DNA from: Centroscyllium fabricii
Taxonomy: Eukaryota
Direction: 5' to 3'
Length of the DNA: 64,000 nt
Assembly: GCA_051313645.2 (NCBI GenBank)
Contig: JBNRSN020000008.1
Coordinates: 244,590,001-244,654,000, forward strand
Part shown: positions 11,962-64,000 of the stretch, piece by piece
Layout: each line of letters begins with the position of its first letter
How positions within the stretch are numbered: the first letter of the stretch is position 1
The notes under the pieces: generated by a model
The model's database searches: none
What the model was told of the DNA's origin: nothing
Seen by the model: the letters and a program-made list of their open reading frames with translations, nothing else
Made by a program: the position numbers and the translations under genes

Positions 11962-12878
11962 GGGCCCTGTTTTCCTGTGCTCCAGAAGAGCTGCACACCC
12001 ACGAAGGGGGGTCAGAAATGCCTCGTGGGGGTGCAGCACGGGTGATTCCCAGAAACGTCAATTTCCTGTGCTGATGGGGAAGGAGCTTCAGCTTCCAACG
12101 CAGGAAGACTTTGAACTGCCGATTTCCTGTAGCAGCTGCTCAAAATGCGTGTGTATCACATGGGCAAGTCTCTCTTGAGCTGCACATTTAGAAAGCAGTC
12201 TTAGAGTTGCTGCAGGAAGCGTTGACAAGTGGAGAAACACGTTTAAAGGTAAGTTTTTTTTTGTTTCCTTTGCAGATATTTGTCTGCGGTCTTTCAGCTT
12301 TTAAATGGTAGGGTTTTTTTTTGATGATAGTGAAAAAAAAACGTTTTTAACGCGATTTCAGCAGCTCTGGTGGCCATCACAGCTGCTGAAATCGCGTTAA
12401 AAACCCGTTTTTTTTTCACTTCCAACAAAAAAAAAACCCTACCATTTAAAAGCTGAAAGACCACAGACAAATATCTGCAAAGGAATCAAAATTTTTTTAC
12501 CTTTAAACGTGTTTTTTTCACTTCCACAAAAAAAAAACCCTAACAGCAGAAAAGGCAGAAACTTTAAAAAAACAAGGTGCTTCCTAGAAAATTTTAAAAA
12601 ACAAGGTGCTTCCTAGAAACTTAAAAAAAACAAGGTGCTTCCTACCCGATATTCTTTGCACTGAGGCCGATTCTGTGCTTTGTGCGGGGGAAAAGCCGAC
12701 CTCAGTGGGCGTGGCCTGCTCACAACCCACGCACAAAGCACCTCGCACCAACAAAAGCCAGACCCCAACGCAGCAAAAAAAAACGGCATTTTCAACAGGA
12801 AATTGCCGTCAGAAAAAAAAAAATTACGTGCATGTGAGCGTGCACCCACAGCAATCGGGCCACAGGGATACAGGGCCC
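11962..12878. mobile_element. MITE, probably PIF/Harbinger-derived, with an internal long palindrome
   Basis: TIR gggccctgttttcctgtg / cacagggatacagggccc; 3-bp TSD atg; inverted repeat 12235-12514; 3 x ~30-bp tandem (aaaaacaaggtgcttccta) at ~12560-12645. Confidence 0.8.
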
Positions 12879-13681: not shown

Positions 13682-14251
13682 GTCTGGCGTACACTTTGTT
13701 TACTGGCGTCTGGTATTGGGCCTTCAGGCTATCGATGGCCTCTGTGTAAGAGGCGGCATCCCGGATGAGCAAATAAGTCCAATGACTTATGCGAGTAATC
13801 AGTAGACTCGGTTTCTATGCCTCGCTAGCGGATGCGGCCCCCGTGAAGAGTTCGAAGCATCTGAGCCAGTGTCCAAATTGATTTGATGCTTCAGCAGAAT
13901 GTGGATCCAAGTCCAGACACTCTGGTTTTAGGAGTCGATCCATCCTAGTATTCAGAGCGATTAAAATTGATGAGCCTTCAATAACTACAAAACTAGAAGT
14001 TATTTTCTTATACAGATAGGCTTTTAATCACTATGAATTAGAGCTTACATCTCGACGGGCCGGCTGCCTCACAGGAATGAGTCCTACAGAGCCTAGGTTC
14101 TTTATGTAAGCGGTGCCAGGGGTGGAGCGAAAGCCAATTCCTGGAATCGCCCAGGTTTAGTCAGGAAATAGGAAGTGAAACTATACACAGTGGGGGAGGA
14201 CAATATACATGAGTGCAAAACGAATATATATAAACAACAGATTTCATTACA
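13682..14251 (-). mobile_element. Truncated Gypsy 5' end: LTR 13968-14251 plus gag N-terminus (ATG at 13943)
   Basis: Minus-strand LTR tgtaatg...catca. Gag MDRLLKPECLDLDPHSAEASNQFGHWLRCFE..YARH with a stop, homologous to the gag start of the element at 59377-64000. Confidence 0.85.
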
Positions 14252-31981: not shown

Positions 31982-34041
31982 CTAACTGACTGTTACACTA
32001 ACACCCAAGTGACTCCCGTTGTGCATAAGGGTGCTTAATTGTTCTTTTGCGAGTGCTCCTACGCGGTGGTGGCCCTGTAGTGTCAGCAGATATGGAGGCC
32101 CCCTGCTGAGTGCCCTGCTGCTCCTGTCTGGAAACCTTTGGCGGTCATCCTCTGGGGCGGCGAGCCTGTGGGAGCTCGCTACCAGTCTGCTGCTCCTGCG
32201 GCTGGGCAGGGTTGGAGACTTCCATCTCAGGTGCATGGGGACTCCGGCGGGCCTCTGACCGAGGGCTCTGCAGTGGTGTGGACGTGGGAGCGCTTGGAGA
32301 GTAGCCCCCACTTCCTTCAGCTGCACCACCAACCTTCCTCTCATGGGTCACCTCCCTCTCAGTGCCTGCAACTGGCTGGACAGCACCTTGCTGCACTTCA
32401 GGGGGGCCATGGTGACCCGTTTCTGCAGTGGAAGTCCTACTGTGAGGGACTTCCATGAAGGTCTGGTTCCTGTGCTCAACAGATGCCACTCGGTGCTCAA
32501 GAGATGTGTAACTATTGTGGACAGTGCCCATGTCTTCGAAAGACTGGTGACTTATGTGCTCGATGGCCGTGGCCATCCTCTCGTCCACAGTCGCTATCCT
32601 TTCCATGGTTTTCACCATCCTTTCCATGGTGGTCGCCATCCTTTCCATGGTGGTTGCCATCCTTTCCATGGTGATGAGATCATGCACCACTGACTACGCA
32701 AGGTCGCTTCTCATGCTTGCGACAGACCCCTCATACTCCTGACACTCGCAGCTAACTGGTAGACAAAACCTGTCAGAGAAGCCTGCATCTGTGTCTGGAG
32801 ACCCATCATGATGGATCCAAAGGTGCTGTGTCGACATGCAGCTCAGCTAAGCTGGCAGTGTCCTGCGCCCTCTGACTAGGACTCTGCACTGCTGTCCCTG
32901 TCTCCACAATCTGCTGAGGCTCACTAGTGCTGTCTGAATCACCCGGTGACAAGTCATGTGTAGCTCTAGGGGGGCCCACCGAGGTGCTAGTATCTGCGCT
33001 CGTGCCGGGTGGAGTCTGTGGTGCTGACGGTGCACCCTCAGAGGTGGCAGGTTCCTCTGAGGACTGGATGGGGCAGCCTGGTGCTGATCTCTGGTTGGCC
33101 GTCCAGATGCTGCTGGGCCTGTGGGGCAGTAAAGGCAGAGGTTAGAGATATGTCAGTAAGGTTACATACAGATAGCATTCAGGAGCTGAGCAGAGCTGCC
33201 TCTGCAGTGCTTTTACATTCATTGTGCCAGTCTCATGTGTTCCTTGTTAGAGAAATAATTAAACCATGCTGTCACCAGCTCGAGATTGCATGCCTGCCTC
33301 GCCGTCACCCACTCCCGGGGCGTGCCCCTCCCCAACGAGGCCTAGCACTGCCTCCTCCCAGGTGGTGAGCTGCTGGATGTTGGAGGGTCCTCCTCCGGTC
33401 CCGGCGCTGTGCCGCTTGTTTGTGGCTGTCTTTTCCTGCAATGAGGGAGAGAAGTGGAGGTCGAGTGAGAAGGAAGGAGTTGGTGCAGTGAGTGAGCAGC
33501 AAAGTTTGTTGTAGGGTGACAAAGATGCAGTGAGCCTGCAAGACCAAAGGCTCTCCCTGTGTGGTGCCAGATGTGCAGCAAGCATGAGAGTGAGAGGGAG
33601 TGTGAGGGCAGAATGGAGGGAAAGGACCGTGAGTGCGAGCATAGATAGAGAGGGAATGGGTAAGGTTGCTTGGAGGTGATGGGCAAGTGGGATGTGGAGG
33701 AAGGGAGTGGTGAAGATAAGTTGTGGAGAGGAGAGGTGTGGGGGATGAGATTGAGGATATGGGGAAATGAATACTTACTCTTGCAGTGCGATGAAGGTCA
33801 TGCAATCTGTTGCGACACTGCAGCCATGACTGGTGTGTTGTGCCCAAAGAGCTGACCCCCTCAGCCACCTGCTGCCATGCAGCCTTAGCCTGTGAGGGAG
33901 GTCTCTTCCTCCCTGAGGAGGGTAAGAGAACCTCCCTATGGGAAGTTGCCCCCTCGAGCAATGCGTCGAGTGAGGCATCATCAAATTTGGGGGCGGGTCG
34001 CCCCTCGCACTGCCCGATGCAGCACCCCCATGCTCTGCCAT
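31982..34041 (-). pseudogene. Harbinger Myb/SANT-like DNA-binding gene, 3 exons (34041-33779, 33435-33276, 33118-~31982), disabled
   Basis: RPAPKFDDASLDALLEG..REVL..AKAAWQQVAEGVS..SWLQCRNRLHDL|gtaagt; ttgcag|EKTATNKR..TGGGP..LTTWEEAVL|gtgac; ccacag| exon 3 with MERMATT heptads; frameshifts and stops. The 3' end is approximate. Confidence 0.9.
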
Positions 34042-34314
34042 CCTGCTGAAGGTTGCAGAGCTCTGAGCAGTGCGGGAGGCGAGCTGTTTTTATTAAAGGA
34101 AACCCGAATCCTGACGTCATATTGTGCGACTTTCTGACTGGAAATCGGTAATTGGGAATGCTTCCCACAGGCGGGGAATTAATTGAGTTGTTAGACGAAA
34201 ATCTCGTGGGAAACGCAGGCACTTATTCGGGCGGGACAAAAACCCGCCCGACCAATCCCCGCCATTAGGGCAAAATTCCTGCCCATATGTGCGTTCTTTA
34301 AATCAACGTCTCTT

Positions 34315-37380: not shown

Positions 37381-38272
37381 CCATTATTTAGCTGTCAGCG
37401 AAGGAATAGCGTCCCCCATTCATCAAGCTTACAGCTGCCCACAGTCTTTTCGTGGGCTTCTGACGGGCAATTTCCGGTTCCAAGAGATCTTTTTCAGTGT
37501 GGTGTACTCTGCCGGGATATGTGGCGTTTGTGAACGAGTCAAGCCACAGTGTGTCTCTTTAATCCATCAATGAAGATTCACTGAAACACGTAGGTGTCGA
37601 TTTTCCTTCAGGCGGGCTTTGAGGCGTGTGGGGGGTTAAAATCGCAAAAAGTGAGGGTCGTGACCCCCGGCCTGGTTCCCCACACTTAGCCATCTGATCG
37701 ACCCAATCAGTCCCACTGCAACAGGCGGGACTGGTCTTTAGAGACTTAATCTGTCATAGGTTGGCTGTTCCCCTTTAACTCATAGGTTGGCTCTTCCCCT
37801 TTAACTGGTTATCACCTCGTTAGCGCTACTGCCCGCACCTGATTGAACAGCCCAGATTCACCAGTGATAATCAAGAGCTGTATATAAGACCCTGCTTTCT
37901 ACCTAGTGGTTGCCAGATCGTTTGTTCTTTCTGACTGTGATACCTGTGTGTAGTTCTAGCTCTCTGATCCTGCCTGTTCGAGATACTGACCTGCTTTCTG
38001 GAATTTGGATTCTCTTCTGCCTGACCTCGTTTTGGATTTGTCGCTCTCGTGGACGGACTACCCGGTATTGACCTGTTTTTGGTATTTGGATTCTCTTCTG
38101 CCTGATCTCTGCTTTGGACTTGTTGCCTCCGTGAACTTTCTGCCGATACATTGACCCACTGTTACCTATGTCTTCAACTGCTCAGAAATAAAGGAGTTTA
38201 CTTCTACGTGGCTGTTTCGGTGTATTGCATTTGGGCCCAACCTACAACCGTTACACAACGATCTGGCCAGAA

Positions 38273-39241
38273 ATGGACCCAGCAGACACACCGGATCATC
38301 TTGCGCAGGTTGAGTGCGCCCTAAGGCACCAGGGGCAGACCTTGGGGAAGCTATATGCTCAAGTGGAGCAGCTAACCGCCGCCCTGATCAAGCGGGCAGC
38401 TTCGGATCCGGCAGGGACCACACCACCACCATTTCTTGCTCCAGCATCGGTGTCGGCACCCATGCCTCACCCACAAGGCCTCACACCCGAACCCCGGGTC
38501 GGGGTCCTGGAGCTTTATGCTGGTGAACCTGAGTAATGCAATCCCTTCCTCACTAACTGTTCCATTCTTTTTACATTGCAGCCCCACACCTTTGCCAATG
38601 AGGCGGCAAAGGTAGCCTTTGCTATTAACCACCTTACTGGAAGAGCTCGCCTCTGGGGAACCGCCGAGTGGGAGAGAGAGACTCTGGCTTGCTCTTCCTT
38701 CCAGATGTTTGCCATCGAATTAAGAAAGGTATTCGGCATGGTGACCTACGGCTCTGAAGCAGCTCGGGGAATCATGAATCTGAGCCAGGGTAATCAGACA
38801 GTGGCCGACTATTCCATAGATTTCCGAATCAGAGCTCGTCAGAGTGATTGGAACTCTGCTGCATTATGTGACGTTTTTCTCCATGGGCTTGCAGAGTACA
38901 TCAAGGATGAACTGGTCTCCTATGATCTCCCTTCCACCCTGGATGAACTAATTAGTCTTGCCACCAGGATTGACCTCCATATCCAGGCGCGTCGACGTGA
39001 GAGACGACTGGGAACGACTGGTCGACCTCCTCCGAAACAGTCCCAAGAGATTTTCGTGGCACCCAGGTCTACTGCGACAGCAAGGTCACAGTCTTTGGGG
39101 CCCGAACCGATGCAGTTGGGTCGCACCAGTCTCTCATTGGAGGAGCATGAACGACGCCGCCAGGGGAATCCCTGTCTGTACTGTGGGCAGGCCGGCCATT
39201 TTGTTTCCCGATGCCCAGCAAAAGGCCGGGCTCACCAGTAG
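38273..39241 (+). pseudogene. gag: Gag with CCHC knuckle; premature stop at 38534-38536
   Basis: MDPADTP..; [43 protein letters not shown]. Confidence 0.93.
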
Positions 39242-42200
39242 ATGGGGTCGTACTGGTGAGCCGAACTCCTACAAGACTCTCTCCCAATCCACGACCCTTG
39301 TGCCAGGCCAGACTTCTTCTTCCCAGTGGATCCCAGACTCTCGCCAACTTTATTGACTCTGGAGCCGATGTTAACATTATTGATGAGGATCTTGTCACAC
39401 AGCTGGAGATTGACCGGGTTCCACTGCCACAGCCGGTTCCTGCCAACGCCCTCGACAGTCACCTCCTGGGAACGGTGACACATCAGACCTCACTGGTTCA
39501 CATGCTTATGTCTGGTAATCATTATGAAAGTATTCAGTTTCATATCCTGAAATCACCTCGGCTTCCTTTGATTCTGGGACACACTTGGCTTCGCCGCCAC
39601 AACCCCCACATTGACTGGAACACGGGAACTATTCTGGGGTGGAGTTCCTCCTGTCACCAGGTCTGTCTGAAACAGGCTACCGTCTCCCAACAGCCATTAA
39701 CACCTCTTCCCGCTCCAGATCTTTCAGTGGTCCCCACTGAATACCACAATTTTAGGGAGGTATTCAGCAAGGCTAGAGCCACGTCGCTGCCCCCACAGCG
39801 CCGCTATGACTGCGCCATTGATCTGCTGCCAGGGTCTTCCCCACTCAAGGGACGCCTGTATTCCTTGTCTGCACCTGAGAGGGAGGCCATGGAAACATAC
39901 ATCAGCGACTCTATGGCGGCGGGGATCATCCGTTCCTCCTCATCACCTGCTGGGGCTGGATTCTTTTTTGTTGGTAAGAAGGACGGGTCGCTGCAACCAT
40001 GCATCGACTACAGGGGTCTAAATGACATCACGATAAAGAACGGGTATCCTCTTCCTCTCATCTCTTCTGCCTTTGAGTTGCTACAGGGGGCGATCATCTT
40101 TACCAAGCTTGACCTTCGTAACGCCTATCACTTGGTCCGGATCCGAGAGGGCGATGAATGGAAGACAGCTTTCAACACTCCCTCTGGTCATTATTAATAC
40201 CTCGTAATGCCGTTCGGGTTAACCAATGCCCCGGCGGTATTCCAATCCTTGGTGAATGACGTGTTAAGAGACATGCTGAATCGGTTTGTGTTCATTTACA
40301 TGGACGACATTTTGATTTTTTCTAAGTCTCGTGAGCAGCATGTTCACCATGTCCAGACTGTCCTGCAATGGCTTCTCGAGAACTCGTTATTTGTGAAGGC
40401 GGAGAAGTGTGAGTTTCACGTCACTACCGTATCTTTCTTGGGGTACATCATTGCGCAGGGGAGCGTGCAGATGGATCCAGAGAAGGTGGCAGCTGTCACG
40501 TCTTGGCCTATTCCGGAGACACGTAAACAGCTACAGCGGTTCCTGGGGTTCGCTAACTTCTATCGAAGGTTCATTCAAGGCTACAGCACGGTAGCGGCCC
40601 CGTTATCGGCCCTTACCTCCTCTACGGTGCCGTTTCTGTGGTCTTCTGCAGCGGAGGAGGCTTTTCGAGGTCTCAGGTCCCGGTTCACCTCTGCTCCCAT
40701 TCTCCAGGTGCCTGATCCGGATCAGCAGTTCGTGGTAGAGGTGGATGCATCAGATGTTGGAGTAGGGGCTATTCTGTCCCAACATTCTGCTTCCGACCAA
40801 AAGCTACATCCCTGTGCCTATTTTTCTAAACGCCTGTCCTCGGCTGAGATGAATTATGACATCGGGAACCGGGAGCTACTGGCGGTCAAGATGGCATTGG
40901 AGGAGTGGCGCCATTGGCTAGAGGGGACCAAGCTGCCATTCCTAGTCTGGACAGACCATAAGAACCTCGAATACATTCATACGGCCAAGAGGCTGAATTC
41001 ACAGCAGGCTAGGTGGTCCCTCTTCTTTACCCGTTTCAACTTCACCCTCTCCTACCGGCCTGGTTCTCGCAATTTCAAGCCTGATGCTCTGTCCCGCCAG
41101 TTCCAGAAGGAGGAGAGTTCCGCTCCTGGATCTGACCTCATCCTTCCAGCTCCATGTCTGATTGCTGCCGTTACGTGGGAGATCGAGGAGAGGTTGAGAT
41201 CAGCCGTGGAGAATCAGGCTGGACCCAGCGGTTGTCCTCCCGACCATCTATTCGTTCCCAGGGACCTTCGACCTGATGTTCTCCAGTGGGCCCATGCTTC
41301 CAAGCTTTCCTGCCATCCGGGGGCTCAAAGGACCAAGGAGGTTATACTGCGGAGGTTCTGGTGGGATACTCTGGAAGAAGACATCCGGGAGTTTGTCAAC
41401 GCCTGCTCGGTCTGCAACCAACACAAGCCGTCTCATCAGGCTCCCGCTGGTCTTCTGCAACCTCTGCCGGTGCCACATCGTCCTTGGTCCCACATATCCT
41501 TGGACTTTGTTACTGGTCTGCCTCCATCCAAGGGACTAACCACTATCCTGACAGTGGTGGACCGATTCAGCAAGATGGCTCATTTCATACCTTTGCCTAA
41601 ACTGCCCTCGGCGAAGGAGACGGCTGAACTTATGCTGCAACATGTTTTCCGTCTTCATGGTCTTCCTGTCGATGTAGTCTCTGATCGGGGTCCACAGTTT
41701 ACGTCAGTATTCTGGAGGGAGTTCTGCAGGCTGATCGGGGCCACAGTCAGTCTGTCTTCAGGTTTTCATCCGCAGTCCAACGGGCAGGCTGAATGCATGA
41801 ATCAGGAGATGGAGAAGGCCCTACGATGCATGGTCTCCCAGAATCCCTCTTCCTGGTCCCAGTTACTCCTGTGGGTAGAGTACGCCCACAACACCCTGAC
41901 CAGTTCCGCCACCGGACTCTCCCCGTTCCAGTGCGCCTATGGGTTCCAGCCCCCATTGTTTCCGGACCTGGAGAGGGAGGTTTCCTGTCCGTCTGACCAG
42001 TCATTTATTCATCGTTGTCGCCGGACATGGGCCCAGGCACGGACTTCATTGCTTCGCTCAGTGGACCGCTACTCTGCTGCTGCCAACCGTCGTCGCTCGG
42101 AGGCTCCGAACTATCAGGCTGGTCAGAAGGTGTGGCTCTCCACTAAGGACCTGCCCCTCCAGGTGGAGTCTAAGAAGCTAGCTCCCAGGTTTATCGGTCC

Positions 42201-42693
42201 CTTCGAGATCCAGAAGGTCATCAACCCAGCGGCAGTGAGACTCAAGCTTCCTTGATCCATGCGGGTTCATCCCACTTTTCATGTGTCGCAGGTCAAACCA
42301 GCACGAGAGAGTACATTGGTGCCTGTTGCCACGCCCCCTCCGCCTCCTCGTATGCTCGACGGCGGGTTGGTCTACACTGTTCGCCGCCTACTTCGCTCCT
42401 GTCGCCGAGGGAGAGGACTTCAGTACCTGGTGGACTGGGAGGGGTATGGTCCAGAGGAGAGGTCCTGGGTTCCTCCTCGTCACATTGTTGATCCTCAGCT
42501 TATAGCCGACTTCCACAGAAGGCATCCCGACCAGCCGAGTAGGAGGACTGCGCCCCCTGGGGAGTCTGGGCAAGGGCCCAGTTCCGTGCATTCTCCTGAA
42601 ACCCTGGACGAGGAGGTGCAATCCTCTGATGAGGAGAATTCTCTTCATTCAAGTGATGAAATGGACGTGGATGAGGGTCCTGAGGAATATTAG
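39211..42693 (+). pseudogene. pol: Pol (PR-RT-RNaseH-IN-chromodomain) in the -1 frame relative to gag; stops at 40195-40197 and 42253-42255
   Basis: [56 protein letters not shown] motif, chromodomain [23 protein letters not shown]. Confidence 0.96.
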
Positions 42694-43726
42694 TCCCTCC
42701 TCCGCACCCTCTCCCCCCACCCGACTCTGGCATTTGGGGTTTGGGACGTCGGGAGCCATCCCTTGAGGGGGGGTTCTGTCATAGGTTGGCTCTTCCCCTT
42801 TAACTCATAGGTTGGCTCTTCCCCTTTAACTGGTTATCACCTCGTTAGCTCTACTGCCCGCACCTGATTGAACAGCCCAGATTCACCAGTGATAATCAAG
42901 AGCTGTATATAAGACCCTGCTTTCTACCTAGTGGTTGCCAGATCGTTTGTTCTTTCTGACTGTGATACCTGTGTGTAGTTCTAGCTCTCTGATCCTGCCT
43001 GTTCGAGATACTGACCTGCTTTCTGGAATTTGGATTCTCTTCTGCCTGACCTCATTTTGGATTTGTCGCTCTCGTGGACGGACTACCCGGTATTGACCTG
43101 TTTTTGGTATTTGGATTCTCTTCTGCCTGATCTCTGTTTTGGACTTGTTGCCTCCGTGAACTTTCTGCCGATACATTGACCCACTGTTACCTATGTCTTC
43201 TACTGCTCAGAAATAAAGGAGTTTACTTCTACGTGGCTGTTTCGGTGTATTGCATTTGGGCCCAACCTACAACCGTTACATAATCAGCACACGGCCATTT
43301 TTAAAGGCCCTTGCTATTTTACCCCTTTTCCCAAGTAAAACAGGCCTGGTGGGAATCACGCCTGTGAATCCTGGCATGAGCACTATTGGCTTTCTGACTA
43401 TCAGCTGCAGGTCAACCAGAAAATGACGACGTCATATTCGGAGACTTATTGACAGGAAATTGTCAATTGCCAAGGTTTCCCACACATTGGAAATCAATTG
43501 GCCAATTGAGTTAAAATTGCATCAATCTCACAGACCCATTTAGATTTGTGTGGGAAGCTCGACATTCGGGAAACCCAACAATTCCCCGCACCTGAGGGAA
43601 AATCGAGGCCGTAGAGTCTAAACCAGGAAGTATGAATTAGAATATTTAATTCCTTGTAAAATCATGCACAGAAAGAGAAATAAAACATTAGTTTGACCCC
43701 AGTTGGAATATGACACCTATTCTGGG

Positions 43727-48943: not shown

Positions 48944-51900
48944 TGTTATATCTATTAATGATCACACACAGAGCCTTCATAAACGTTGACTAGTTTATTG
49001 CATAGCAGCCATTACACAGCCCTACATGCTGTGGTTACCCAGCATCCTTTGGGGATGGAACATTCCAAGTATCACAGCCCTTAAGGGGAGTGCAGACTCT
49101 ACCAATATATAACATCTCCTCCCCCCTTACAATCAACGTCCATAGTTAACAATAACATTACAATTAACAAAAGTAACATACCAACTAACAAAACATTATT
49201 ATACATATATACATTATTTCCAGTACCTGGGGTGAGGGCACCCGACTTCCTCAGACCCCGGCAATTCCCATGGGCATTATTCTGCCCCAGTTGTTTTGGG
49301 TATGCCTCTATTAGTAACTCAGTCGTTCAGGGGGCCGCCGCTGTCTAGCAGGATATCGGCGGTCATTCGGAACATTGTCTTCGCTTGTTGGCGATGGTGA
49401 ATCGGAGCAAACTGGAGAGGCAACAGGAGGAAGAACATCTTCCTCGGCGGGCAGGTCCGGAACCACAGGGTCAGGCTGAGGCAACACTGGGGGCACGTTC
49501 TGCGAGGACTGGTCAACAGGTGGAACCTCACATTGGATCTCCGGGCGACTCTCGTCAGGTAGTCCTGAGGGCTGAACCGTGTGTAGCAGTTGGTCCACTT
49601 GCCGTCTCCAGACAGTACCAGTAGTCGTCTGGACTGTATATGAAACTGGTCCCGTCTGAGCAACAATAGTGGCTGGAATCCAGTTGGGCCCACTGACGTA
49701 ACTTCGTATCAACACTGATGCCCCTGGCGTGAAAGCTCTGGGCTTCGCATGCTGGTCTCTTCTAATAATTTGGGACTCCTGCTGCTGTTGCACAGTGTCC
49801 TTCACTGATGGTGGCTTCAGGAGGTCAAAATGAGACCGCAGCTCTCTTTTGAGTAATAGGCGAGCTGGTGATACTTTGGTCGTAGCATGGGCCGTATTAC
49901 GGTAGGTCAGTAAGAACCTATGCAATCTTTGATGCAAAGTTCCTTGGCCTTGGGATGCTCTCAGGGCGTGCTTCATCGTTTGCACAAACCTTTCAGCGAG
50001 GCCATTGGTTGCAGGATGATATGGGGCGGACCTGATATGCTGCACTCCATTTACTTGCAAGAAGGCAGCCATCTCCTGCGATACAAACTGTGGGCCATTG
50101 TCAGATACAAGCTGGATGGGAGCTCCAAACCGACTGAACATTTCCCCCAACTTCTCAATGGTCCTTTCTGACGTGGTGGAACGCATGATTGCCACTTCAG
50201 GCCATTTGCTGTGTGCATCAACAGCAACAAGAAACATATTTTCTTCAAACGGTCCTGCAAAATCAACATGGACCCTGTGCCATGGTTCTTCAGAGAAACT
50301 CCATGGGTGTAGAGGAGCCAACTGTGGATGATTTCTGACCTTCTGGCATGAAGAGCATGTCTTCGCAATGCTCTCGATCTGTCCATCCATGCCTGGCCAC
50401 CAGAAATAGCTTCTTGCTATTTCCTTCATTCGGACAATTCCGCTGTGCCCTGAGTGGAGTTGTTGCAACACTGGTTTGCGTAATGATGGTGGAATGACCA
50501 CCCTCCTTCCCCATAGCAAACATCCCAACTGTACTGACAATTCCATTTTCTTTGATAGGTAGGGCTGTAAGTTGCTGTCCCCATTACCAACGGTGCCCTT
50601 TACAATGATCTCCACAACAGCCGATAAGATGGGATCGCTGCGCATAGCACCTCGTACTTGAGAAGCTGAGACAGGAGCATTGTCCACCTGGCTAAAATAA
50701 AAGACTTCTGCCTTATGGAATTCGGGTTTAGTGACAGGAAGTGGCAACCTAGATAAACCATCGGCGTTGCAGTGTGACTCTGCCTTACGATATTTTATGT
50801 CATAAGAATGAGCAGACAATAATAAAGCCCAACGTTGCAGACGACTTGCAACAAGAGACGGTATCCCAGTGTGTGGACCCAGGATGGTTGTGAGAGGCCG
50901 ATGGTCTGTAAGAAGTGTGAACCTCCGTCCATATAAATACTGGTGGAATTTCCGAACTCCAAAAACGATACTTAAAGCTTCTCGCTCCAGTTGAGCATAG
51001 TTGGCCTCTGCTTTATTCAGTGTCCTTGACGCAAAAGCGATGGGTCTTACCTCCCCATTTGACAGGACATGCGAAAGAACTGCACCTACCCCATATGGAG
51101 ATGCATCACAGGCCAGTTGAAGAGGAAGTGAAGGGTCAAAATGAGTCAAGACATCTGAACGAACTAGCAGCTCTTTAGCCTTTTTAAAAGCTTCTTGACA
51201 TGCAGTACTCCATTTCCATGTTCTGTCTTGGCACAGCAATTCATGAAGTGGCTTCAACAACGATGCTAGATTTGGCATAAACCGACCATAATAATTAAGT
51301 AGACCTAGAAAAGAACGCAGTTGACTGACGTTCTGTGGTGGTGGCGCATCCACAATGGCTGCGGTTTTAGATGGGGCAGTATGCAACCCCTCAGCATCAA
51401 TGACATGCCCCAAGTACTCTACCGATGCTTTGAAAAATTCACACTTGTCTTTACGAACTCTGAGTCCATACTGTTTAAGACGATTTAGCATCGCATCCAA
51501 ATTCTGAAGGTGTTGCTCATCAGTGACTCCAGTACAAAGAATATCATCCAGGTAACACTGTACTCCGGACAGTCCGCTAAGAATTTGATCCATGGCACAC
51601 TGGAACAGCGCTGGAGCTGACGTAATACCGAAAGGCAACCGACAATAACGAAAAAGACCCTTGTGCGTGGTAATGGTGAGCAATTCACGCGAGTCTTTGT
51701 GGACATGCATTTGAAAATAGGCTTGACATATGTCTATTTTACTGAACTTTTGTCCCCCACTGAGTCCAGCGAATAGATCATCGATGTGGGGAAGCGGGTA
51801 CTGTTCTGCACATAACACTGTGTTAAGTGTTACCTTTAAATCCCCACAGGTTCGGATGCCTCCATCTTTTTTTGGTACTGGAACTATCGGTGTAGCCCAA

Positions 51901-53791
51901 TCACTAACAGTGACCGGTTCCAATACTCCATTTTCCACGAGAGCATCTAGATCAGCTTCTACTTTCGGTTTGATAGCGTATGGTACTGACCTGGCCTTCA
52001 TGAACACCGGCCTGCTATCCAGCTTAACATGTAATTTAACTGTTATGCCCTTCATGCTCCCCAGTTCATCTCGAAAAACTGTATCAGAGGGTCGCAGCTT
52101 TAGGTGCCTCAAGGAGTTGTAAAAGACCTTGGTCGAAATAATTGAGGCCCGTGACCCGGTATCAATCTGCATTCTAACTGCGTGTCCCTCTAGCTTGGGT
52201 GAAACCCAGTATCCATCTGAACCCTCATCTATGTTCCATATTCTAAGGGTGTTTACCAGCAGTTCCTCCCCGGAGGAGTCACTTGACTTGTTCTCTTGTT
52301 TCATTGTATGAACGTATTTCTTCGTCCTAGCCCCGTATTTCGATGGGGTGCCCGTGCTTTTCTTACTGCGACATGCCCGTTCTATGTGGTCCTTTTTCCC
52401 GCAGCTGCGGCATTCCAAATCCCTGCACCAACACGAAGGTGCCAGGTGTCGCTTTTGTCCACAACGGAAGCACTGACCTTGACTGCTCGGTCCTTGGCCA
52501 CTTAGCTTACCACCGTCAACCTTATATACACGACTTGTCGTCGCCTGCAGCTGCTGAGCTTCCTTCGAAGCCATTTCCATGCTCACTGCAATATTCAGGG
52601 CTTGCTCCCATGTTAACTCCTTCTCTGTTAATAATTTCTTTTGAGCGGCTTCATTGCTTAAGCCACATACTAGCCGGTCTCTCAGTGTATCGTTCAGCGA
52701 TTGCCCAAAATTGCAATGCTCTGCGAGCTTCCGCAACGCTGCTGCAAACTTTGTAACCGCCTCTCCGTCTCCTTGGCTGCGACTATGAAAGCGAAACCGT
52801 TCCGCGATGACCAAGGGTTTGGGTGCAAAATGGTTGGCCAGTGTCTCTACGATTAATCCATAGGTTTGGGTTCCCGGTTTGTCTGGCTGCAGTAAATCAC
52901 GCAGTAGATTATATGTTCTCGGGCCCATCATGCTCAAAAATGTGGCGGAAATTCTTTCTTCCTTGATGTCATTTGCTTTGACAAAACAGTCAAATCGCTC
53001 CGTATACCCAGACCACTGCTCTGTTCCATCATCATAGGGCCCAATCGTTCCATAGACTGCCGCCATTGTTCACCCCTTTTCGCGCCCTTTTTTTTTAACG
53101 GCCTCACGTTCTGTTCGAGCTCTCTTTAAACAACCAAAACGGCTTTGCGCTCTTTTTTTAAAATTATATGGCTCTCTCTCTTGCCTCCTTTTGAGGTACC
53201 TGGTGGTCGACTCATTTGTCTGTTTCTTGGCACCACCACGCCCGCTGTTTGGAGTGCTCCCAGCTCCTCCAACCTCCAGCGGTGGCAGGCCTCCTCCTCT
53301 GTTGGCTGTCCTCCAGCCCCGTTCAGCCTCCTGTGAGTGTCCGTCGACCGCGGTTCCTCCCGCCGGTCCCGGTTCCGTTTTTTTTGTTTTTTTCTTTCTC
53401 TGCAGCTGCCTCACCAATACCGGAACGTTGGACATCCGATGTCCACTCCAGTACCGAGTGCGTCCTGCCTTTTTTTTTCTTTTAAAGACGGCGAGTTCTT
53501 CTTTTTTTTTTCAAAAAAAAATGTTTATATTACTTTTTTTTTTCTTTTTAAAATTATTTTAACTTGTCGATGAGTCTGTTTGACTCATCAATAGTGGATC
53601 CTATCCACCTCGTTGCCAGATGTTATATCTATTAATGATCACACACAGAGCCTTCATAAACATCGACTAGTTTATTGCATAGCAGCCATTACACAGCCCT
53701 ACATGCTGTGGTTACTCAGCATCCTTTGGGGATGGAACATTCCAAGTATCACAGCCCTTAAGGGGAGTGCAGACTCTACCAATATATAACA
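48944..53791 (-). mobile_element. Young Gypsy (Mag-like) nested in the outer Gypsy; LTRs 53621-53791 (5') and 48944-49114 (3')
   Basis: 171-bp LTRs with 3 differences; TSD gtcct; PBS tggcaacgagg; PPT aaggggggaggaga. Confidence 0.97.
49311..53066 (-). CDS. Single uninterrupted gag-pol ORF (1251 aa) with an in-frame deletion in the protease
   Basis: Gag knuckles, IDTG, RLPFGI, YLDD, CDASPYGVG, HVDFAGP, SDNGPQF, NGLAERFV; the segment between SDTVF and RDELG is missing. Confidence 0.95.
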   Translation of the reverse strand: MAAVYGTIGPYDDGTEQWSGYTERFDCFVKANDIKEERISATFLSMMGPRTYNLLRDLLQPDKPGTQTYGLIVETLANHFAPKPLVIAERFRFHSRSQGDGEAVTKFAAALRKLAEHCNFGQSLNDTLRDRLVCGLSNEAAQKKLLTEKELTWEQALNIAVSMEMASKEAQQLQATTSRVYKVDGGKLSGQGPSSQGQCFRCGQKRHLAPSCWCRDLECRSCGKKDHIERACRSKKSTGTPSKYGARTKKYVHTMKQENKSSDSSGEELLVNTLRIWNIDEGSDGYWVSPKLEGHAVRMQIDTGSRASIISTKVFYNSLRHLKLRPSDTVFRDELGSMKGITVKLHVKLDSRPVFMKARSVPYAIKPKVEADLDALVENGVLEPVTVSDWATPIVPVPKKDGGIRTCGDLKVTLNTVLCAEQYPLPHIDDLFAGLSGGQKFSKIDICQAYFQMHVHKDSRELLTITTHKGLFRYCRLPFGITSAPALFQCAMDQILSGLSGVQCYLDDILCTGVTDEQHLQNLDAMLNRLKQYGLRVRKDKCEFFKASVEYLGHVIDAEGLHTAPSKTAAIVDAPPPQNVSQLRSFLGLLNYYGRFMPNLASLLKPLHELLCQDRTWKWSTACQEAFKKAKELLVRSDVLTHFDPSLPLQLACDASPYGVGAVLSHVLSNGEVRPIAFASRTLNKAEANYAQLEREALSIVFGVRKFHQYLYGRRFTLLTDHRPLTTILGPHTGIPSLVASRLQRWALLLSAHSYDIKYRKAESHCNADGLSRLPLPVTKPEFHKAEVFYFSQVDNAPVSASQVRGAMRSDPILSAVVEIIVKGTVGNGDSNLQPYLSKKMELSVQLGCLLWGRRVVIPPSLRKPVLQQLHSGHSGIVRMKEIARSYFWWPGMDGQIESIAKTCSSCQKVRNHPQLAPLHPWSFSEEPWHRVHVDFAGPFEENMFLVAVDAHSKWPEVAIMRSTTSERTIEKLGEMFSRFGAPIQLVSDNGPQFVSQEMAAFLQVNGVQHIRSAPYHPATNGLAERFVQTMKHALRASQGQGTLHQRLHRFLLTYRNTAHATTKVSPARLLLKRELRSHFDLLKPPSVKDTVQQQQESQIIRRDQHAKPRAFTPGASVLIRSYVSGPNWIPATIVAQTGPVSYTVQTTTGTVWRRQVDQLLHTVQPSGLPDESRPEIQCEVPPVDQSSQNVPPVLPQPDPVVPDLPAEEDVLPPVASPVCSDSPSPTSEDNVPNDRRYPARQRRPPERLSY

Positions 53792-56545: not shown

Positions 56546-59376
56546 GGGGCTCGATTTTTGCCAGGCCCGAGGAGGCGGGATTGGAGGCACGTGAGGTGTT
56601 CAAATCGCAAAAACTGGCAGGCGGGCCCGATCCCGCATCCATCCTGCCTCCGAGCAATTTTTCCACATGCAAGTTTTCTGACCCCGTCGCCATCCCGCCT
56701 CCAAGAGGCGCGATAGGCCCTTAAGGCCCTTAACAACCAGTTAAGTGCCTTTATAACACCATTTTGAGAGGCCTTTCTGATTTTAAGTTTTCTCCCGTGC
56801 TGCATGCCTCCTCTGAAACACGCCAGTGAAACCTGGCAGCAGCACAAGTGGATTGCTTACTAACAGCTGCAGCTCCACCATTAAAAAGGAGTTTTCAGCA
56901 ATCTTCATTTGCAGGTGGCAGAACTTTGTTGTCTCAGGTCTGTGGGAACTTTTAACAGACCTACTCATTGTTGTGGAAGTTTGGAGCCTGACACCCAATT
57001 CCAGTGTGACCTCCTGGGAAAACCCTCTCCCCACCTTGAATGAACACTTCCTCAACTGAGGTATATACCAGAATAATGGGATCCATTTATTTCCTTTCCT
57101 CTTGGACATCAGATTCAGACGAAGACTATCCGTGGCAGCAGCAGAACCCTGAACAACAGCAGCACCAACAGCAGCAGCAACAGCAGGAGTGCCAAGCTGC
57201 TGCTCACCCACCTGAAGCTGCACAGGCCAGAAGGCGCCAGCGTGCAACCACATTGCTGCCCAGGATGCAAGGGACACACACATCTTGGCCAGATTTGCTT
57301 AGCCTGCACAATCAAACGCTTTTGCCTCGCACCTTCTGATCAGACCGTCGACAATGGCCAAGAACCTGTGGATTCCTATCACTCTGACCACCATACTAAC
57401 AATTTCAAGTTGCCGTAAGCCCCCAATGTGGAAGTTCCATTTGCGAAATGACACATGCCACATCTGCAAGTTTGCCATCAGAATTTTTTAGGACAATAAG
57501 CAAGTGATGGCATTTTAAAAATAAACACATTACACCCAAGTGACTACCCTTATGACTACTTGTGGATTATCTTTCGCTTACGCATGCTCCTACATGGTGC
57601 ACCCCTGTGGCTCAGCAGATGTGGAGGCCCCTTGCTCACTTTCTTGCTGCTCCTGTCTCAACACCTTTGGCGGGCATTCTCTGGGGTTGCGAATCTGTGA
57701 GGGCTCGGCAACAGTCTGCTGCTCCTGCAGCTGTGCAGGGGTTGAGTCGCCAATCTCAGTTGGGTGGGGACTCTGGTGGGGCTCTGGCTGAGGGCTCTGC
57801 AGTGGCATGGTCATGTGAGTGCTTGGAGAGGAGCCCCCACTTCCTTGTTGTCTGCCACCAACATCCCTCTCATGGGTCAGCCCCACTTCAGAGCTAGCAA
57901 GCGGCTTGAAAGCACCTTGCTGCAATTCAGGGGGGGGCCATGAGGACCCGTTTCTGTACTGGAGGTCCTACTCCCGAGGACTTGCCTGAAGGTCTGGTTT
58001 GTTTGCTCAAGAGCTGACTATCGCTTCTCAAGTGATGTCAGTCTATTCTGAACAAATCCCATGTTTTCCATACCCTGGCAACTAAGCTCCTCCATGGAGG
58101 TAACCATCCTTTCCACTGAGGTTGCCATCCTTTCCATGGTGATGCGTTCATGCGCCAACGCCTCCACAAAGTCTCTGCTCATGTTAGCGATGGACTCCTC
58201 CATTCACTCCACACTCACAGCGATCCTCGCAGCAAGACACAAACTGCCAGAGACTCCTACACCTGCTCCTGGAGTTCCAGCACCGTTCTTCCACTGGATG
58301 GACCCGGAGGCAGAGGGTCGATATGCAGCTGAGTCGAGCTGGCAACGTCATGTGCCCTCCGACTAGGACACTCCACTGCTGTCCCTGTCTCCACCATCTG
58401 CTGATGCTCACTTCTGAGCTGTGATACACCAGGTGACAACATTACACTATCTCGCGAAGGTACCACCGAGGTATGAGTGTCTGCGCTGGTGCTGGGTGCG
58501 CTGAATTCTGCTGATGCTGTGCCCTCAGAGGTTGCAGTGCCCTCTGAGGAGTCTGGAGGCTCAGGCTGTCCCTCCTGGATAGTGGGATGGGGGCTTTCGA
58601 TGGTCTTGTGAGGGAGTAAAGGAAAGAGTCAGAGATGTGAGGACAAGGTTACATGCACATTGCATATTGCAGATGATCATAAGTCAATCTGTTAGAGCAT
58701 CAGAATCATTATCAGTGACTCCTGCAATGTCAATGAGAGAGATGATGAACTATTCTGTCACCAGCTTGCTCTGATGCATCTGTCCATCCCCCACTTATGC
58801 ATCATCCTCCACTCCCACGATCTCCAGGGCCGCATCCTCCCAGGGGGTGAGATGGGCTACTGAGGGTGGCCCTCCTCCTGCCCACACACTTTCCCTCTTA
58901 TTGTGAGCTCTCTCTTCCTGCAATGAGGGAGACAAGTGGAGTTGGAGTGAGAATGAAGGAGTGAGTGTAGCGAATCGATATCATTGATGGTTAGAAGAAG
59001 ACAAAGATGGAGTGAGGTGGCAAGACCAAGGGCCCTCCCTGTGTTGTTAGTTGTTTTCATAGCATCACAGCGACAGGGAGTGTGAGGGCTGCATGCCTGA
59101 ATAGTTAGGTGAATGTGACCATAGAGAGAGCGAGGGAGTGGGTAAAGGAGCATGGATGTCCCTGTCAAGTGGGATGTGGAGGAAGAGGTGGTCAAAGCTG
59201 AGTGCTGGTGAGGAGAGGCAATGGGGATCAGATTGAAGGTGATGGAAAGTCATACTCACTTTTCCAGTGCACAGAAGGTCATGAAACCTCTTCCTCCACT
59301 GCAGCCAGGATCTGTGTCATAGACAAAGAGTTGACCTGCTGCGCCACTTGTATCCACACAGCTTTCGTCTGATGGG
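56546..59376. mobile_element. Second Harbinger element, internally deleted: transposase N-terminus only (57076-~57270, +) and Myb-like gene remnants (-), cut by a Gypsy at 59377
   Basis: MGSIYFL..poly-Q start like 29272; exons 59376-59260 (KAVWIQVAQQVNS..WRKRFHDL|gtgagt), 58917-58762 and an exon 3 with MERMATS, homologous to 31982-34041. Confidence 0.85.
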
Positions 59377-62300
59377 TGTGACCGAAATAACGACCTCGTG
59401 CATGAGTAGTTAGAAGGGTGAAACAATGCGGTTTTTATTCACTAAATGGTGGACATGCACCAGGTAGTCGACCGTCCCCAGGAATGGCCGGGGGATGGGA
59501 GACGGCCTCTTATATACCTCCTCCTGGGAGGGAGGAGTCGCGGGCGGAGCCAGCCTGGGCATGTCCAGGTAATCTTACAACAGGTTATACAGGTTATGGA
59601 TATAAGCATGATTACAGAGATACATCATAGGGTGGGTACATACAATGGGAACAGTGGGAAACAGTGGTTTATCAAATTCACCCCTTCTTTAAAACAAAAG
59701 TCCGGCGGGGTGAATGCAACAGTTCTTTTATTTATTTATAAATTAAGTCGCTCCGGCGGCCTGGTGATCCTGGTTGAGCGTCACACCGCTGCTGGTGTCC
59801 GCGGTCGTGGAGTGGCCGGCCGAGTTGGTTGTAATGATGGTGCTGATGCTGGTTGGCGAGCGGTGATCGTCGGTTGGTTTCTGGGTGGTGGTGCCCTTAT
59901 ACTGACAGTAGGAGGCGTGCTCTCTCCCTCGTCGTCTGACTCTAGGGGGCGTGCACTGTGGAGCCATGCTGGAGGCCATGCCGTGCTGCTCCCAGGTGCC
60001 GGGTGGACGTACCGGGGTGCTGGGTCCTCGTGCCGGGGAGCGTACCTTGGCGCCGGTGGCCCGGGTGGCGTGACTGGCCACGGTAGCCTGGGTGGGGTAG
60101 CTGGCCATCCTGGGTGCGCGGGCTGTTGTGCGGGGCTGGGCTTGGGAACTCCTGCTGGCGCCAGGTCCTTGATGGACACTGTGTCCTCCCTCGCATCGGG
60201 GTACGCCACAGAGGCGTACTGGGGATTGGCATGCAGGAGATGGACCCGTTCGACCAGGGGATCTGCCTTGTGGCCCCTCACGTGCTTCCGTATTATGACC
60301 GGTCCCGGGGATAGTAGCCACGATGGTAGCGAGGTCCCGGAAGCCGACTTCCTGGGGAAGGCAAAAAGTCGTTTGTGAGGGGTGGCATTAGTGGCAGTAC
60401 ACAGGAGGGACCGGATAGAGTGGAGCGCTTCGGGGAGAACGTCCTGTCACCGGGAGACTGGGAGGCTTTTAGACCATAGGGCTAACAGGATGGCCTTCCA
60501 GACAGTGGCGTTCTCCCTCTCTACCTGCCCGTTCCCCCGGGGGTTGTAGCTGGTAGTTCTGCTAGTCGCGATGCCCTTGGCTAGCAGAAACTGACGCAGC
60601 TCGTCACTCATAAAGGACGCTCCCCGGTCACTATGAATATAGTTGGGATAGCCGAACAGGGAGAAGATGCTGTGGAGGGCTTTGATGACAGTGGCGGAGG
60701 TCATGTCCGGGCAGGGGATGGCAAAGGGGAAGCAGGAGTACTCATCAATCACGTTGAGGAAGTACACATTCCTGTTGGAGGAGGGAAGGGGCCCTTTGAA
60801 ATCGACGCTGAGTCGTTCAAAGGGGCGAGTGGCCTTGATCAAGTGCGCCCGGTCTGGCCGGTAGAAGTGCGGCTTGCACTCCGCGCAGACCTGGCAATTG
60901 CTGGTCAGGGTCTTGACCTCCTCGATGGAGTAGGGGAGGTTGCGGGACTTCACGAAGTGAACCAACCTGGTGACCCCCGGGTGGCAGAGGTCATTGTGTA
61001 AGGTTTGGAGGCGGTCTGTCTGTGCACCGGCACAGGTACCGCGGGATAGGGCGTCTGGGGGTTCGTTAAATTTCCCGGGCCGGTACAAGATATCATAATT
61101 AAACGCGGAGAGTTCAATTCTCCACCTTAATATCTTGTCATTCTTGATTTTACCCCGCTCTTTGTTGTTGAAAATAAAAGCGACTGATCGTTGGTCAGTC
61201 AACAGGGTAAAACGCTTGCTGGCCAGGTAGTGCTTCCAGTGATGCACTGCTTCAACGATGGCCTGGGCCTCCTTCTCGACTGAGGAGTGGCCATTCTCGG
61301 GGACCTGGAGGGTGCGTGAGAAGAAGGCCACAGGTCTGCCCGCCTGGTTAAGGTTGGCGGCCAGGGCAAAGTCCGATGCATCGCTCTCTACTTGAAACAG
61401 GACGGACTCGTCCACAGTGTGCATCGTGGCATTTGCGATGTCATTCTTAATGCTACAGAACGCCGAGCGGGCTTCTGCTGACAGGGGAAATAGGTGGATT
61501 TAAGCAGTGGGCGAGCTTTGTCCGCGTAATTGGGGACCCACTGGGCATAATATGCAAAGAACCCCAAGCACCATTTAAGGGCCTTGGGGGAGTGGGGGAG
61601 GGTGAGCTCCATGAGGGGGCGCATGCGGTCCGGGTCGGGACCGATGACCCCATTCTCCACAATACTGCCGAGGATGGCCAGGCGGGTGGTACTGAACACA
61701 CATTTTTCAGTGTTATAGGTCAGATTAAGTGTTTTGGCGGTGTGGAGAAATTTCTGGAGGTTAGCGTCATGGTCCTGCTGATCGTGGCCGCAGATGGTCA
61801 CATTATCGAGGTACGGGAAAGTGGCTCGCAGCCCGTACTGATCGACCATTCGGTCCATCTCTCTCTGGAAGACCGAGACCCCATTCGTGATGCCAAACGG
61901 GACCCTAAGGAAGTGGTAGAGGCGACTGTCAGCCTCGAAGGCTGTATAGAGATGGTCCTCTGGGCGGATGGGAAGCTGGTGATATGCGGACTTCAGATCT
62001 ATGATGGAGAACACCCGGAACTGCGCAATCTGATTCACCATGTCCGCTATCCGGGGGAGGGGGTAAGCTTCTAGCTGGGTGAACCGGTTTATGGTCTGAC
62101 TGTAGTCAACGACCATCCGGTTCTTCGCTCCGGTTTTCACCACCGCTACCTGCGCCCTCCAGGGGCTATTACTGGCCTCGATAACCCCCTCCTTCAGGAG
62201 GCGCTGCACCTCGGACTTGATAAAGTCCATGTCCCCAGCACTGTAGCGCCTACTCTTGGTGGCGACGGGCTTGCAGTCTGGGGTGAGGTTGGCAAAGAGC

Positions 62301-64000
62301 GAAGGAGGGGCGACCTTAAGGGTCGAGAGGCCACAGGTAGCGCGCCGAGGGTGCGGCGCCGAGCGCTGGTTTATGACTGTGAGCGGGGGAAGGGGCCCAC
62401 CGTACGCCATGGTAATGCTTTGGAGATGGCACTGGAAGTCCAGACCCAATAGTAATGGAGCGCAGAGCTGCGGCAGCATGAAAAAGCTAAAATTATCAAA
62501 ATGCACGCCCTGTACAGTTAGGGCCACTGCGCAACGCCCAGAGACGTCCGCGGATTCAGATTTAGAAGCCATTGATATTCTTTGGCTCGAAGGCATAACC
62601 TTAAGGGAGAGGCGCTTTACTGTCTCCGGATGAACAAAACTCACCGTGCTCCCACTGTTGAAATGGCACACCACGTGCTGTCCGTTCACTCCCACCGGCA
62701 TCATCGATTTCCCAAGCGATTGGGTCTTGTTCTGGTCGAGAGTTACTGATGCTAAAATTGGGTCAGCCGATTCCTCTTGATCCGCAGAGTAGTCCTCTGG
62801 GACCTGTCCCCAAGATGGCTGCCGCCATGCGGTGTACTGCGGAGGGGGTGGCTGGGTCCAATATGGTGACTGCTGCCACGTGGGGTGCTGAGTGGGGGAT
62901 GGTTGAGTCCAATATGGCTGCTCCCATGTTCCACACGCGGCGCTGCCCGGTTTCGGTTTCGGGGTTGATGTGGTCGCCTTACAGACTTTGCCATAATGTC
63001 CCTTTTTACCACATTTTGAGCAGGCCGCTTCTCTTGCCGGGCAGCTACGTCTCGGGTGCTGAGACTGCCCGCATAAGTAACATTTAGCCGTCTTTGCGTG
63101 AGCGGCTGCGATCATTTCTTCCGCCGGCCGTTGCGCCGGCGTTGTCCAAGATGGTGGGGCTGGGCCCACATAGTTGCCGAAATACGACGAGAGGTTTAGC
63201 GAGGCCACGTCCAGCGCGTGTCCCAGATCCGTTGTTGCCTGCAAGTCAAGGCCGTTCTGCTCTAACAGCCTCTGTCTTATATATTCCGACCTGAGGCCTG
63301 TCACATATGCATCTCTGATTAGACTGTCCACATGGATCTGGGCCGATAGTGCTCTGCAGTCACAGGCCCGTGAAAGCACTCTCAGCGCTCTTAAAAATTC
63401 CACGCTGGACTCACCGGGTTGCTGCTTCCTGGTGGCTAGGAGATGTCTGGCGTGGACGATATTGGGTGCCCGGTTTTACTCCGCCTTGAGGATCCTGATA
63501 GCATCCAAGTATGATGATGCTTCCACTATCATGGAGTACACCTGAGGGCCCACCCGGGCGTTGAGGAGCCGCCATTTGTCCTCTTCGGTCCTGACGACTG
63601 CTGCATTCGCTCTCAGGTACGCATCGAAAACACTATACTAGTGTGTAAATGTGTTTGATGCGCCTGGTGTCCGGGGGTCCAGTTCAAACGTTGCTGGCTT
63701 GAGCATAGCTTCCATCTTCAAAATTTAGTGAATAAAATTGTGACCGAAATAACGACCTCGTGGATGAGTAGTTAGAAGGGTGAAACAATGCGGCTTTTAT
63801 TCACTAAATGGTGGACATGCACCAGGTAGTCGACCGTCCCCAGGAATGGCCGGGGGATGGGAGACGGCCTCTTATATACCTCCTCCTGGGAGGGAGGAGT
63901 CGCGGGCGGAGCCAGCCTGGGCATGTCCAGGTAATCTTACAAAAGGTTATACAGGTTATGGATATAAGCATGATTACAGAGATACATCATAGGGTGGGTA
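59377..64000 (-). mobile_element. Gypsy LTR retrotransposon; 3' LTR 59377-59674, 5' LTR from 63739 past the window edge
   Basis: Direct repeats with 3 differences over the 262 visible bp; PPT aaagaaggggtgaa; no TGG-type PBS. The inner LTR boundary is inferred because the partner end is outside the window. Confidence 0.95.
59736..63715 (-). pseudogene. Gag-pol, disabled (pieces 61388-63403, 60447-61424, C-terminus to 59736)
   Basis: CCHC knuckles, protease FNSGS (Asn at the catalytic Asp position), IDLKSAYHQ, VPFGITNG, YLDN, SDASD, VDFKGP, HSDRG, GNGQVER; stops and frameshifts. Confidence 0.95.

Follow-up and report, generated by a model that had tools for sequence, protein, structure and literature searches.

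Genomic traces of probable self-priming in a non-chromovirus Ty3/Gypsy clade, studied in Centroscyllium fabricii, with a putative long primer ending in a poly(A) signal

The window analysed here is a stretch of 64,000 nucleotides from the 7.2 Gb genome of Centroscyllium fabricii (contig JBNRSN020000008.1, positions 244,590,001 to 244,654,000 of the forward strand). It contains a minus-strand element of 4.66 kb, flanked by 300-bp LTRs at 64038-63739 and 59676-59377, which has the TG...CA LTRs, target duplication, polypurine tract and PR-RT-RH-IN domain order of Ty3/Gypsy. The end of the 5' LTR was placed at the CA at 63739 on the basis of identity with the 3' LTR end at 59377 and the 5-bp target duplication. 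A single unpaired A (63738) separates this LTR end from the primer-binding site (PBS). The features of the element, a second family of the same clade and two control elements are as follows.

63739..64000 in the window, minus strand: 5' LTR, 300 bp, TG...CA, starting at 64038, 38 nt past the window edge
63871..63878, minus strand: TATA box, as read from the sequence, 31 nt ahead of the initiator A
63843..63849, minus strand: initiator CCATTCC, with the A at 63847 as the putative transcription start and primer 5' end
63795..63847, minus strand: putative 53-nt self-primer, nt 1-53 of the predicted transcript
63795..63809, minus strand: arm, the primer 3' end and partner of the PBS, with the sole AATAAA of the LTR (63801-63796)
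63791..63794, minus strand: GCCG, directly after the predicted cut, where a second, short helix (RCCW/WGGY) begins, perhaps with CGGT at 63746-63743 as its partner
63772..63774, minus strand: likely poly(A) addition site, 22-24 nt past AAUAAA, placed by one junction (L367)
63723..63737, minus strand: PBS, beginning at LTR+2 without TGG, tightly coupled to the arm over LTR+2 to +14
59784..63715, minus strand: gag-pol region with two CCHC knuckles, protease, RT, RNase H and integrase, and no chromodomain
59677..59690, minus strand: polypurine tract
59377..59676, minus strand: 3' LTR, with an arm copy at 59447-59433 and no PBS behind it
59372..59376, minus strand: target-site duplication CCCAT, 5 bp
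13950..14078, minus strand: truncated copy of a second family of the same clade, with initiator A at 14078, arm 14038-14022 containing ATTAAA, PBS 13966-13950 and a putative primer of 57 nt
37750-43074, plus strand: sushi-like chromovirus (control), with an 11-bp self-primer at 37912-37922, 31 nt after the TATA, AATAAA at 38187, 275 nt further on, and a chromodomain at ~42370-42520
~48990-53760, minus strand: Mag-type element (control), with a TGG primer site and a 1,251-aa frame

Stop codons in gag, together with shifts of frame close to 61.4 kb and 60.4 kb, disrupt the gag-pol of the window copy; intact relatives are single ORFs of ~1,190-1,340 aa. A first look at the genome yielded 344,643 gag candidates of the clade. 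The nearest named proteins come from sharks and rays, and, judging from protein names alone, there are also relatives in cnidarians and insects. Two overlapping AATAAA motifs lie at 59736 and 59732 (minus strand), between the pol stop and the polypurine tract, and if used would yield RNAs that lack the 3' R.

The rest of the window is rich in repeats. Long arrays of 35-36-nt repeats fill 350-11450 inside larger duplications of 2,376 and 1,326 nt, and some of these repeats resemble the end of the sushi-like LTR. Perfect inverted repeats of 35, 15 and 24 bp lie nested within one another at 12288-12462 and resemble a small fold-back DNA element. A Myb/SANT-like frame (33308-34219, minus strand), of a kind typical of Harbinger-type DNA transposons, is found near a 1.95-kb duplication (32083/57612). 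The Mag-type element seems to lie inside a second Mag-type element, whose LTRs are near 44723 and 54298 (plus strand).

The element was originally predicted to be a Gypsy element outside the chromoviruses, and this assignment holds. No chromodomain was found in the polyproteins of eight relatives or in the C-terminal frame of the window copy; as a positive control, the sushi-like element of the window matches PF00385. The RT phylogeny that the prediction called for, an unrooted tree with few references (2 sushi-like and 5 Mag-type rows), places the 14 rows of the lineage in a clade of their own (100/99), apart from the two sushi-like rows and, on a long branch of its own, from the Mag-type rows.

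The same prediction held that the leader of the element is perfectly complementary to its own LTR around the poly(A) signal. On the minus strand, 63809-63795 and 63737-63723 are indeed exact reverse complements (15/15 pairs), and the arm contains AATAAA. The partner is present at the 5' LTR only, as claimed; the 3' LTR retains the arm, but host DNA comes after it. The 31-nt spacing between the TATA box (63878-63871) and the initiator A, which is alike in five families of this genome, puts the arm at nt 39-53 of the predicted transcript. The arm was thus rightly distinguished from the transcript 5' end: it begins 38 nt after the initiator, and the primer copies described below extend to the initiator. 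The arm and PBS form one of 14 perfect inverted repeats of at least 11 bp within 150 nt in the window. The folding energy of the 148-nt leader is unremarkable (z -1.25; 20 of 200 shuffles equally good), and the GCCG second helix is absent from the minimum-energy fold of the window copy. The case against chance rests on position and covariation rather than on folding energy.

Three further observations concern this region. An Rfam search of 63500-64000 gave one weak snoRNA match, far under threshold. Four contig sets aligned to the region revealed neither starts nor ends there; one contig in each of two of these sets joins across the entire 87-nt hairpin (63722-63810), possibly through a clean deletion or inversion. 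The R sequence behind the arm (63784-63774) approximates the complement of the polypurine tract (59690-59677) in two subfamilies but not in the third.

The same geometry was also said to recur at 13950-14038 with a different sequence. This locus proved to be the second family of the same clade, whose arm and PBS differ in sequence from those of the first. Its duplex shows 15/17 Watson-Crick pairs in the window copy and 17/17 in 18 of 30 family members.

Conservation of the duplex was followed through the clade at 143 gag starts, from loci in this genome and from metagenomes. A stem is present at 130 of these; at the metagenome loci it was found at 40 of 46 gag starts, compared with 20 of 230 shuffled windows. 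Clustering reduced the 143 starts to 46 clusters, of which 34 were kept as families and 12, with weak or misplaced stems and in some cases visible truncation, were dropped. With the best-scoring copy of each cluster and G-U pairs penalised, LTR+1 pairs in 1 of 34 families, LTR+2 to +14 form Watson-Crick pairs in 32-34 of 34, and pairing falls to background by about +18. Near-full pairing was obtained for 33 of 34 families with their own partners and for 20 of 1,122 swapped combinations, so the covariation across families that had been proposed as a check is present. The LTR end was borne out by a second LTR in 5 of the 7 cases where one turned up. Most of the metagenome families show no TATA/initiator pair at a fixed distance.

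The poly(A) hexamer is not the constant part of the arm. AATAAA occurs in 14 families, ATTAAA in 10 and neither in 10, and one of the families without a hexamer pairs TGAAGA with TCTTC while keeping the duplex. What stays constant across families is the 3' edge of the arm, where AAA is followed by RCC. A second helix of at least 4 bp that starts at this RCC was found in 27 of 34 families (shuffles: mean 8.9, maximum 17). One metagenome relative (L106) carries a tandem repeat of the LTR end and primer site.

The arm and PBS also covary within the window family, of which a PBS-side pattern detects 9,300 junctions in the genome. We read 96 of the first 100 junctions listed and kept the 88 copies with intact LTRs. 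These fall into three arm types, each matching its own PBS. The two variable positions are paired in 86/88 and 84/88 copies, and each partner arm column is the best linked among 208 variable columns. In a tree built without the arm and PBS columns the paired switch recurs on separate branches, and one copy (L238) has a private change present in both LTRs and in the PBS. The outermost arm position varies in 14/88 arms while the PBS stays constant, which indicates a working duplex of ~13 bp. The data do not establish that every cycle re-templates the PBS from the primer: copies with mismatched arm and PBS occur (L276, L281) and mismatched pairs persist (also L026/L027), and Ty3 does not re-template (PMC5371799).

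If the primer is LTR RNA reaching 5' beyond the arm, a plus strand that overruns the PBS should carry a copy of it. We therefore searched the genome for junctions in which the LTR end, the A and the PBS are followed by inverted LTR sequence from upstream of the arm. There are 187 such forward junctions, about 1.3% of the 14,026 LTR-PBS junctions found with a looser pattern, and the control pattern gave 0. Template switching by the host at the DNA level would be expected to produce the mirror junction equally often; it was found once (L463), and that copy is a loop inversion.

Of 100 matches listed, 93 were fetched and 92 junctions read, a few of them duplicates. The inverted copies begin in exact register. 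Copying stops after 52-55 nt, no more than 2 nt from the initiator A, in 35 junctions, a class from which L323 and L332 were removed because they continue past an indel. It ends earlier in 23 and reaches the LTR start in 19, and the remainder end between these points. Partial copies of 22-50 nt grade smoothly toward the initiator. A stricter recount of 87 distinct junctions left 72 classifiable (14 short, 29 at the initiator, 11 between and 18 at the LTR start) and 15 unclassifiable; by this recount the density of ends per nt is 0.47 before the initiator, 5.8 at it and 0.064 beyond. In the second family, 2 of 4 distinct inverted junctions (L411, L415) end exactly at the initiator A, at 57 nt. 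A third family has two junctions, both reaching the LTR start, and gives no initiator signal.

After the copy, 24 of the 35 initiator-ending junctions jump into sense internal sequence, as expected of failed plus-strand transfer, often through microhomology of 1-8 nt. Where untemplated letters follow the copy, the first of them is C in 6 of 8 cases, which hints at copying of a cap. The inverted junctions are best read as primer copies left by failed plus-strand transfer. The long class, extending to the LTR start, is best explained as plus-strand strong-stop DNA folded back on its own arm, a route that also requires a primer copy at the DNA end. Of the long products that could be tested, 5 of 7 have exact 5-bp target duplications, and in L418 the polypurine tract is copied as well.

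Some of the products have unusual structures. Six (L317, L327, L368, L375, L394 and L405) are palindromic mini-elements of ~540-550 bp, consisting of LTR, A and inverted U3-R between 5-bp target duplications, which were apparently inserted by integrase with two U3 ends. Identical junctions occur at different loci or in tandem (L352/L353/L404, L374/L384, L356), which suggests that some deleted products were copied again or duplicated.

Priming independent of tRNA, raised in the original prediction as one role for the hairpin, is strongly supported by the covariation between and within families and by the primer-copy junctions, and self-priming in some form almost certainly operates in this clade. 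Its specific form, we think, is probably priming of reverse transcription in cis with nt 1-53 of the element's own RNA, the last 13-15 nt of which, ending in AAUAAAA, would be paired to the PBS. The proposed primer would be the first 53 nt of the transcript starting at 63847, probably capped. The RNA would be cut between AAAA and GCC, after 63795, where the long duplex meets the short second helix; the most likely nuclease is the RNase H that the element itself encodes, on the model of Tf1. The 3' 13-15 nt of the primer would then start minus-strand DNA at LTR+1. This strand would take in U5 and the part of R, 21-23 nt long, that separates the cut from the poly(A) site, and the R piece would serve the first strand jump. 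The first plus strand would run into the attached primer and normally be trimmed or discarded, as proposed for Ty3; in ~1% of junctions the primer appears to have been copied further, often to the RNA 5' end, before a jump elsewhere by microhomology.

Several other readings of these data were weighed. One that we regard as unlikely is a short self-primer of 13-15 nt, as in Tf1, made by cutting the RNA on both sides of the duplex or from a second start at the arm. The 53-nt copies could then arise where plus-strand DNA bearing a short primer copy paired anew with the arm on another RNA, still uncut, and was extended to the end of that RNA. Such a primer would fit the sharp stop in arm-PBS coupling after 13 nt, the free variation of the outermost arm position against a fixed PBS and the ~99% of junctions that have no longer copy, and folding back of plus-strand DNA on the arm does happen (19/92). 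However, two cuts or two start sites would be required, no TATA lies 30 nt ahead of the arm in the window family, and the smooth gradation of the 22-50-nt copies is that expected from one continuous template.

Priming in trans, which we consider improbable, would use short capped RNAs from any LTR, solo LTRs included, that ended at the poly(A) site, annealed to the PBS of a full-length RNA and were trimmed to the duplex by an exonuclease. That the primer terminates in the poly(A) signal is in keeping with this. The cis test, a weak one, does not separate an element's own LTR from others of its type: junctions show a mean of 0.83 differences to their own LTR and 1.23 to other copies of the same arm type, and are identical in 39% and 36% of cases, respectively. 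A few junctions, L331 and L339 among them, differ from their own LTR at the subfamily position. Against this stand the conserved RCC/GGY helix at the junction, which suggests a recognised cut site, the predicted formation of the intramolecular duplex at a probability of at least 0.8 in 33/34 families, and the precedent of cis cutting in Tf1 (PMC7175516).

We give very little credence to a hairpin that solely masks the 5' poly(A) signal, with priming left to a host tRNA or fragment not yet found, and this reading is already largely refuted. The arm does hold the only AATAAA of the LTR, and AATAAA or ATTAAA lies in the arm of 24/34 families. The direct comparison with tRNAs, in which the longest PBS match was 4-5 nt, covered Cys and Lys tRNAs only (30 loci taken of 63 Rfam matches). 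Yet the PBS begins with (A)TTT rather than TGG and varies from subfamily to subfamily along with the LTR, no TGG follows the LTR in any of the 34 families, and masking leaves unexplained why, in the junctions, the PBS is followed by copied LTR RNA that terminates at the initiator. A likeness of the arm to tRNA D-loops was dropped because the arm varies with each family's PBS. Finally, it is scarcely credible that the inverted junctions are host replication template switches or assembly artefacts and so uninformative on priming: fold-back is indeed favoured by inverted repeats, and L463 is one inversion at the DNA level, but forward junctions outnumber mirror ones by 187 to 1, their end points cluster at the initiator and the LTR terminus, and the long products carry the target duplications and, in L418, the copied polypurine tract noted above.

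The relation of the 53-nt cis primer to the poly(A) signal needs separate treatment, as an RNA cleaved near the poly(A) site had been suggested as one example of a primer. The putative primer ends directly after AAUAAAA. In one junction (L367), the primer copy is followed by CC, 13 T and the reverse complement of 63784-63774, and this single junction likely places the poly(A) site 22-24 nt past AAUAAA. The likely site would then lie ~21-23 nt downstream of the primer 3' end, so the primer would not be a product of normal poly(A) cleavage, a detail that does not fit the suggestion. Reading the T-run of L367 as the U-tract that precedes the polypurine tract was rejected, as it needs at least three changes and the string occurs in 0/80 ordinary copies. 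Genome searches for poly(A)-tailed ends returned 0, 0 and 2 matches, the last against 3 in the control, which leaves L367 as the sole informative case.

The chances that the same duplex also conceals the promoter-proximal poly(A) signal seem to us about evenly balanced. Masking is plausible since the arm holds the only AATAAA of the LTR. The duplex is kept, however, in the 10/34 families without AAUAAA or AUUAAA in the arm, and this bears equally on the masking-only reading discussed above.

The widest form of the proposal, advanced tentatively and in our estimate somewhat less likely to be right than wrong, is that a widespread animal Gypsy clade invented self-priming independently of chromoviruses. 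One duplex would hide the 5' poly(A) signal and then end a capped primer of 53-57 nt after a cut between AAAA and RCC, and from failed copies one could locate the start of the RNA, the end of the primer and the poly(A) site. What is new apart from this wider proposal is self-priming with a probable long primer ending in a poly(A) signal, backed by genomic traces beyond complementarity. A design of this kind, with a long, mostly unpaired primer terminating in the poly(A) signal as opposed to that of Tf1, prompts two questions: how an RT can cleave a duplex inside an RNA, and how it tolerates so long a primer left attached. The junction search can be applied again, since in this way the primer of any high-copy LTR element can be read from a genome assembly. 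Such elements would tend to be overlooked or wrongly described by annotation tools that insist on a tRNA site.

In PMC6317226 and PMC10085805, self-priming among Gypsy elements is linked to the Tf1/sushi group. It has been shown experimentally in Tf1 and is elsewhere inferred from complementarity, mainly in chromoviruses, as far as the accessible parts of this literature indicate. Neither self-priming in a non-chromovirus animal Gypsy clade nor junctions of the present type came up in the portions available of PMC3601003, PMC3286476, PMC6238403, PMC6317226, PMC4600332, PMC10085805, PMC7175516, PMC11042837, PMC13524379, PMC8556966, PMC3670739, PMC5341516 and PMC5371799; Repbase, GyDB, Butler 2001, the Levin papers and subscription papers were outside this search. 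Motif searches of the available papers and supplements did not find a name for the clade. A protein atlas matched unnamed gag clusters only, and no relative of the element was found among viral contigs.

With the Mag lineage (A, B and C clades) the studied clade shares a two-CCHC gag, a single ORF and a 5-bp target duplication. Its gag aligns with that of the Mag-type element of the window (E ~1e-17 to 1e-18), though the RTs are only ~28-31% identical. Cigr-1 of Ciona is ~4.2 kb long, with short LTRs, one ORF of ~1,200 codons, a Mag-like gag and a divergent RT. The studied clade may correspond to Cigr-1, to a MolGy clade or to one without a name. Cigr-1 serves as a Mag-lineage reference and names a clade in molluscs in PMC6238403 and its supplements. 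Mag elements use tRNA-Ser/Leu sites (PMC3286476); the Mag-type element of the window has TGG, and the studied clade, unlike it, has no TGG tRNA site.

Outside the chromoviruses, self-priming has been predicted for the TAR/Houba/Osr-1 elements (PMC6317226), which differ in being plant elements of the Copia superfamily, with sequence prediction as the only evidence. In Ty3 and Ty1 part of the primer is copied into the first plus strand, which is then discarded (PMC5371799), and such a dead-end first plus strand means that a long primer could be tolerated. Those elements use tRNA, whereas in the studied clade the dead-end products appear to survive as insertions in the genome. The poly(A) hairpin of HIV-1 likewise holds AAUAAA in a stem near the RNA 5' end, but it is local, is present at both ends and is unrelated to priming; in the studied clade the partner of AAUAAA is the PBS, at the 5' end only.

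The nearest functional parallel is with Tf1/Tf2 of Schizosaccharomyces pombe and the sushi group, which likewise have no tRNA site and carry LTR sequence complementary to the PBS. The Tf1 primer is cut from the element's own RNA by RNase H between nt 11 and 12 (PMC7175516) and is copied into the cDNA 3' end (PMC11042837). Its 11 nt are the first of the transcript and pair throughout, as part of a pretzel of three duplexes, and these elements have a chromodomain (PMC10085805). In the studied clade, by contrast, pairing would be confined to nt 39-53 of a primer that is probably 53 nt long; this stretch overlaps the poly(A) signal, and the element has no chromodomain. One conserved extra helix is seen in the clade, adjoining the arm and mostly not the PBS. 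The clade works like Tf1 without being a member of the Tf1/sushi group.
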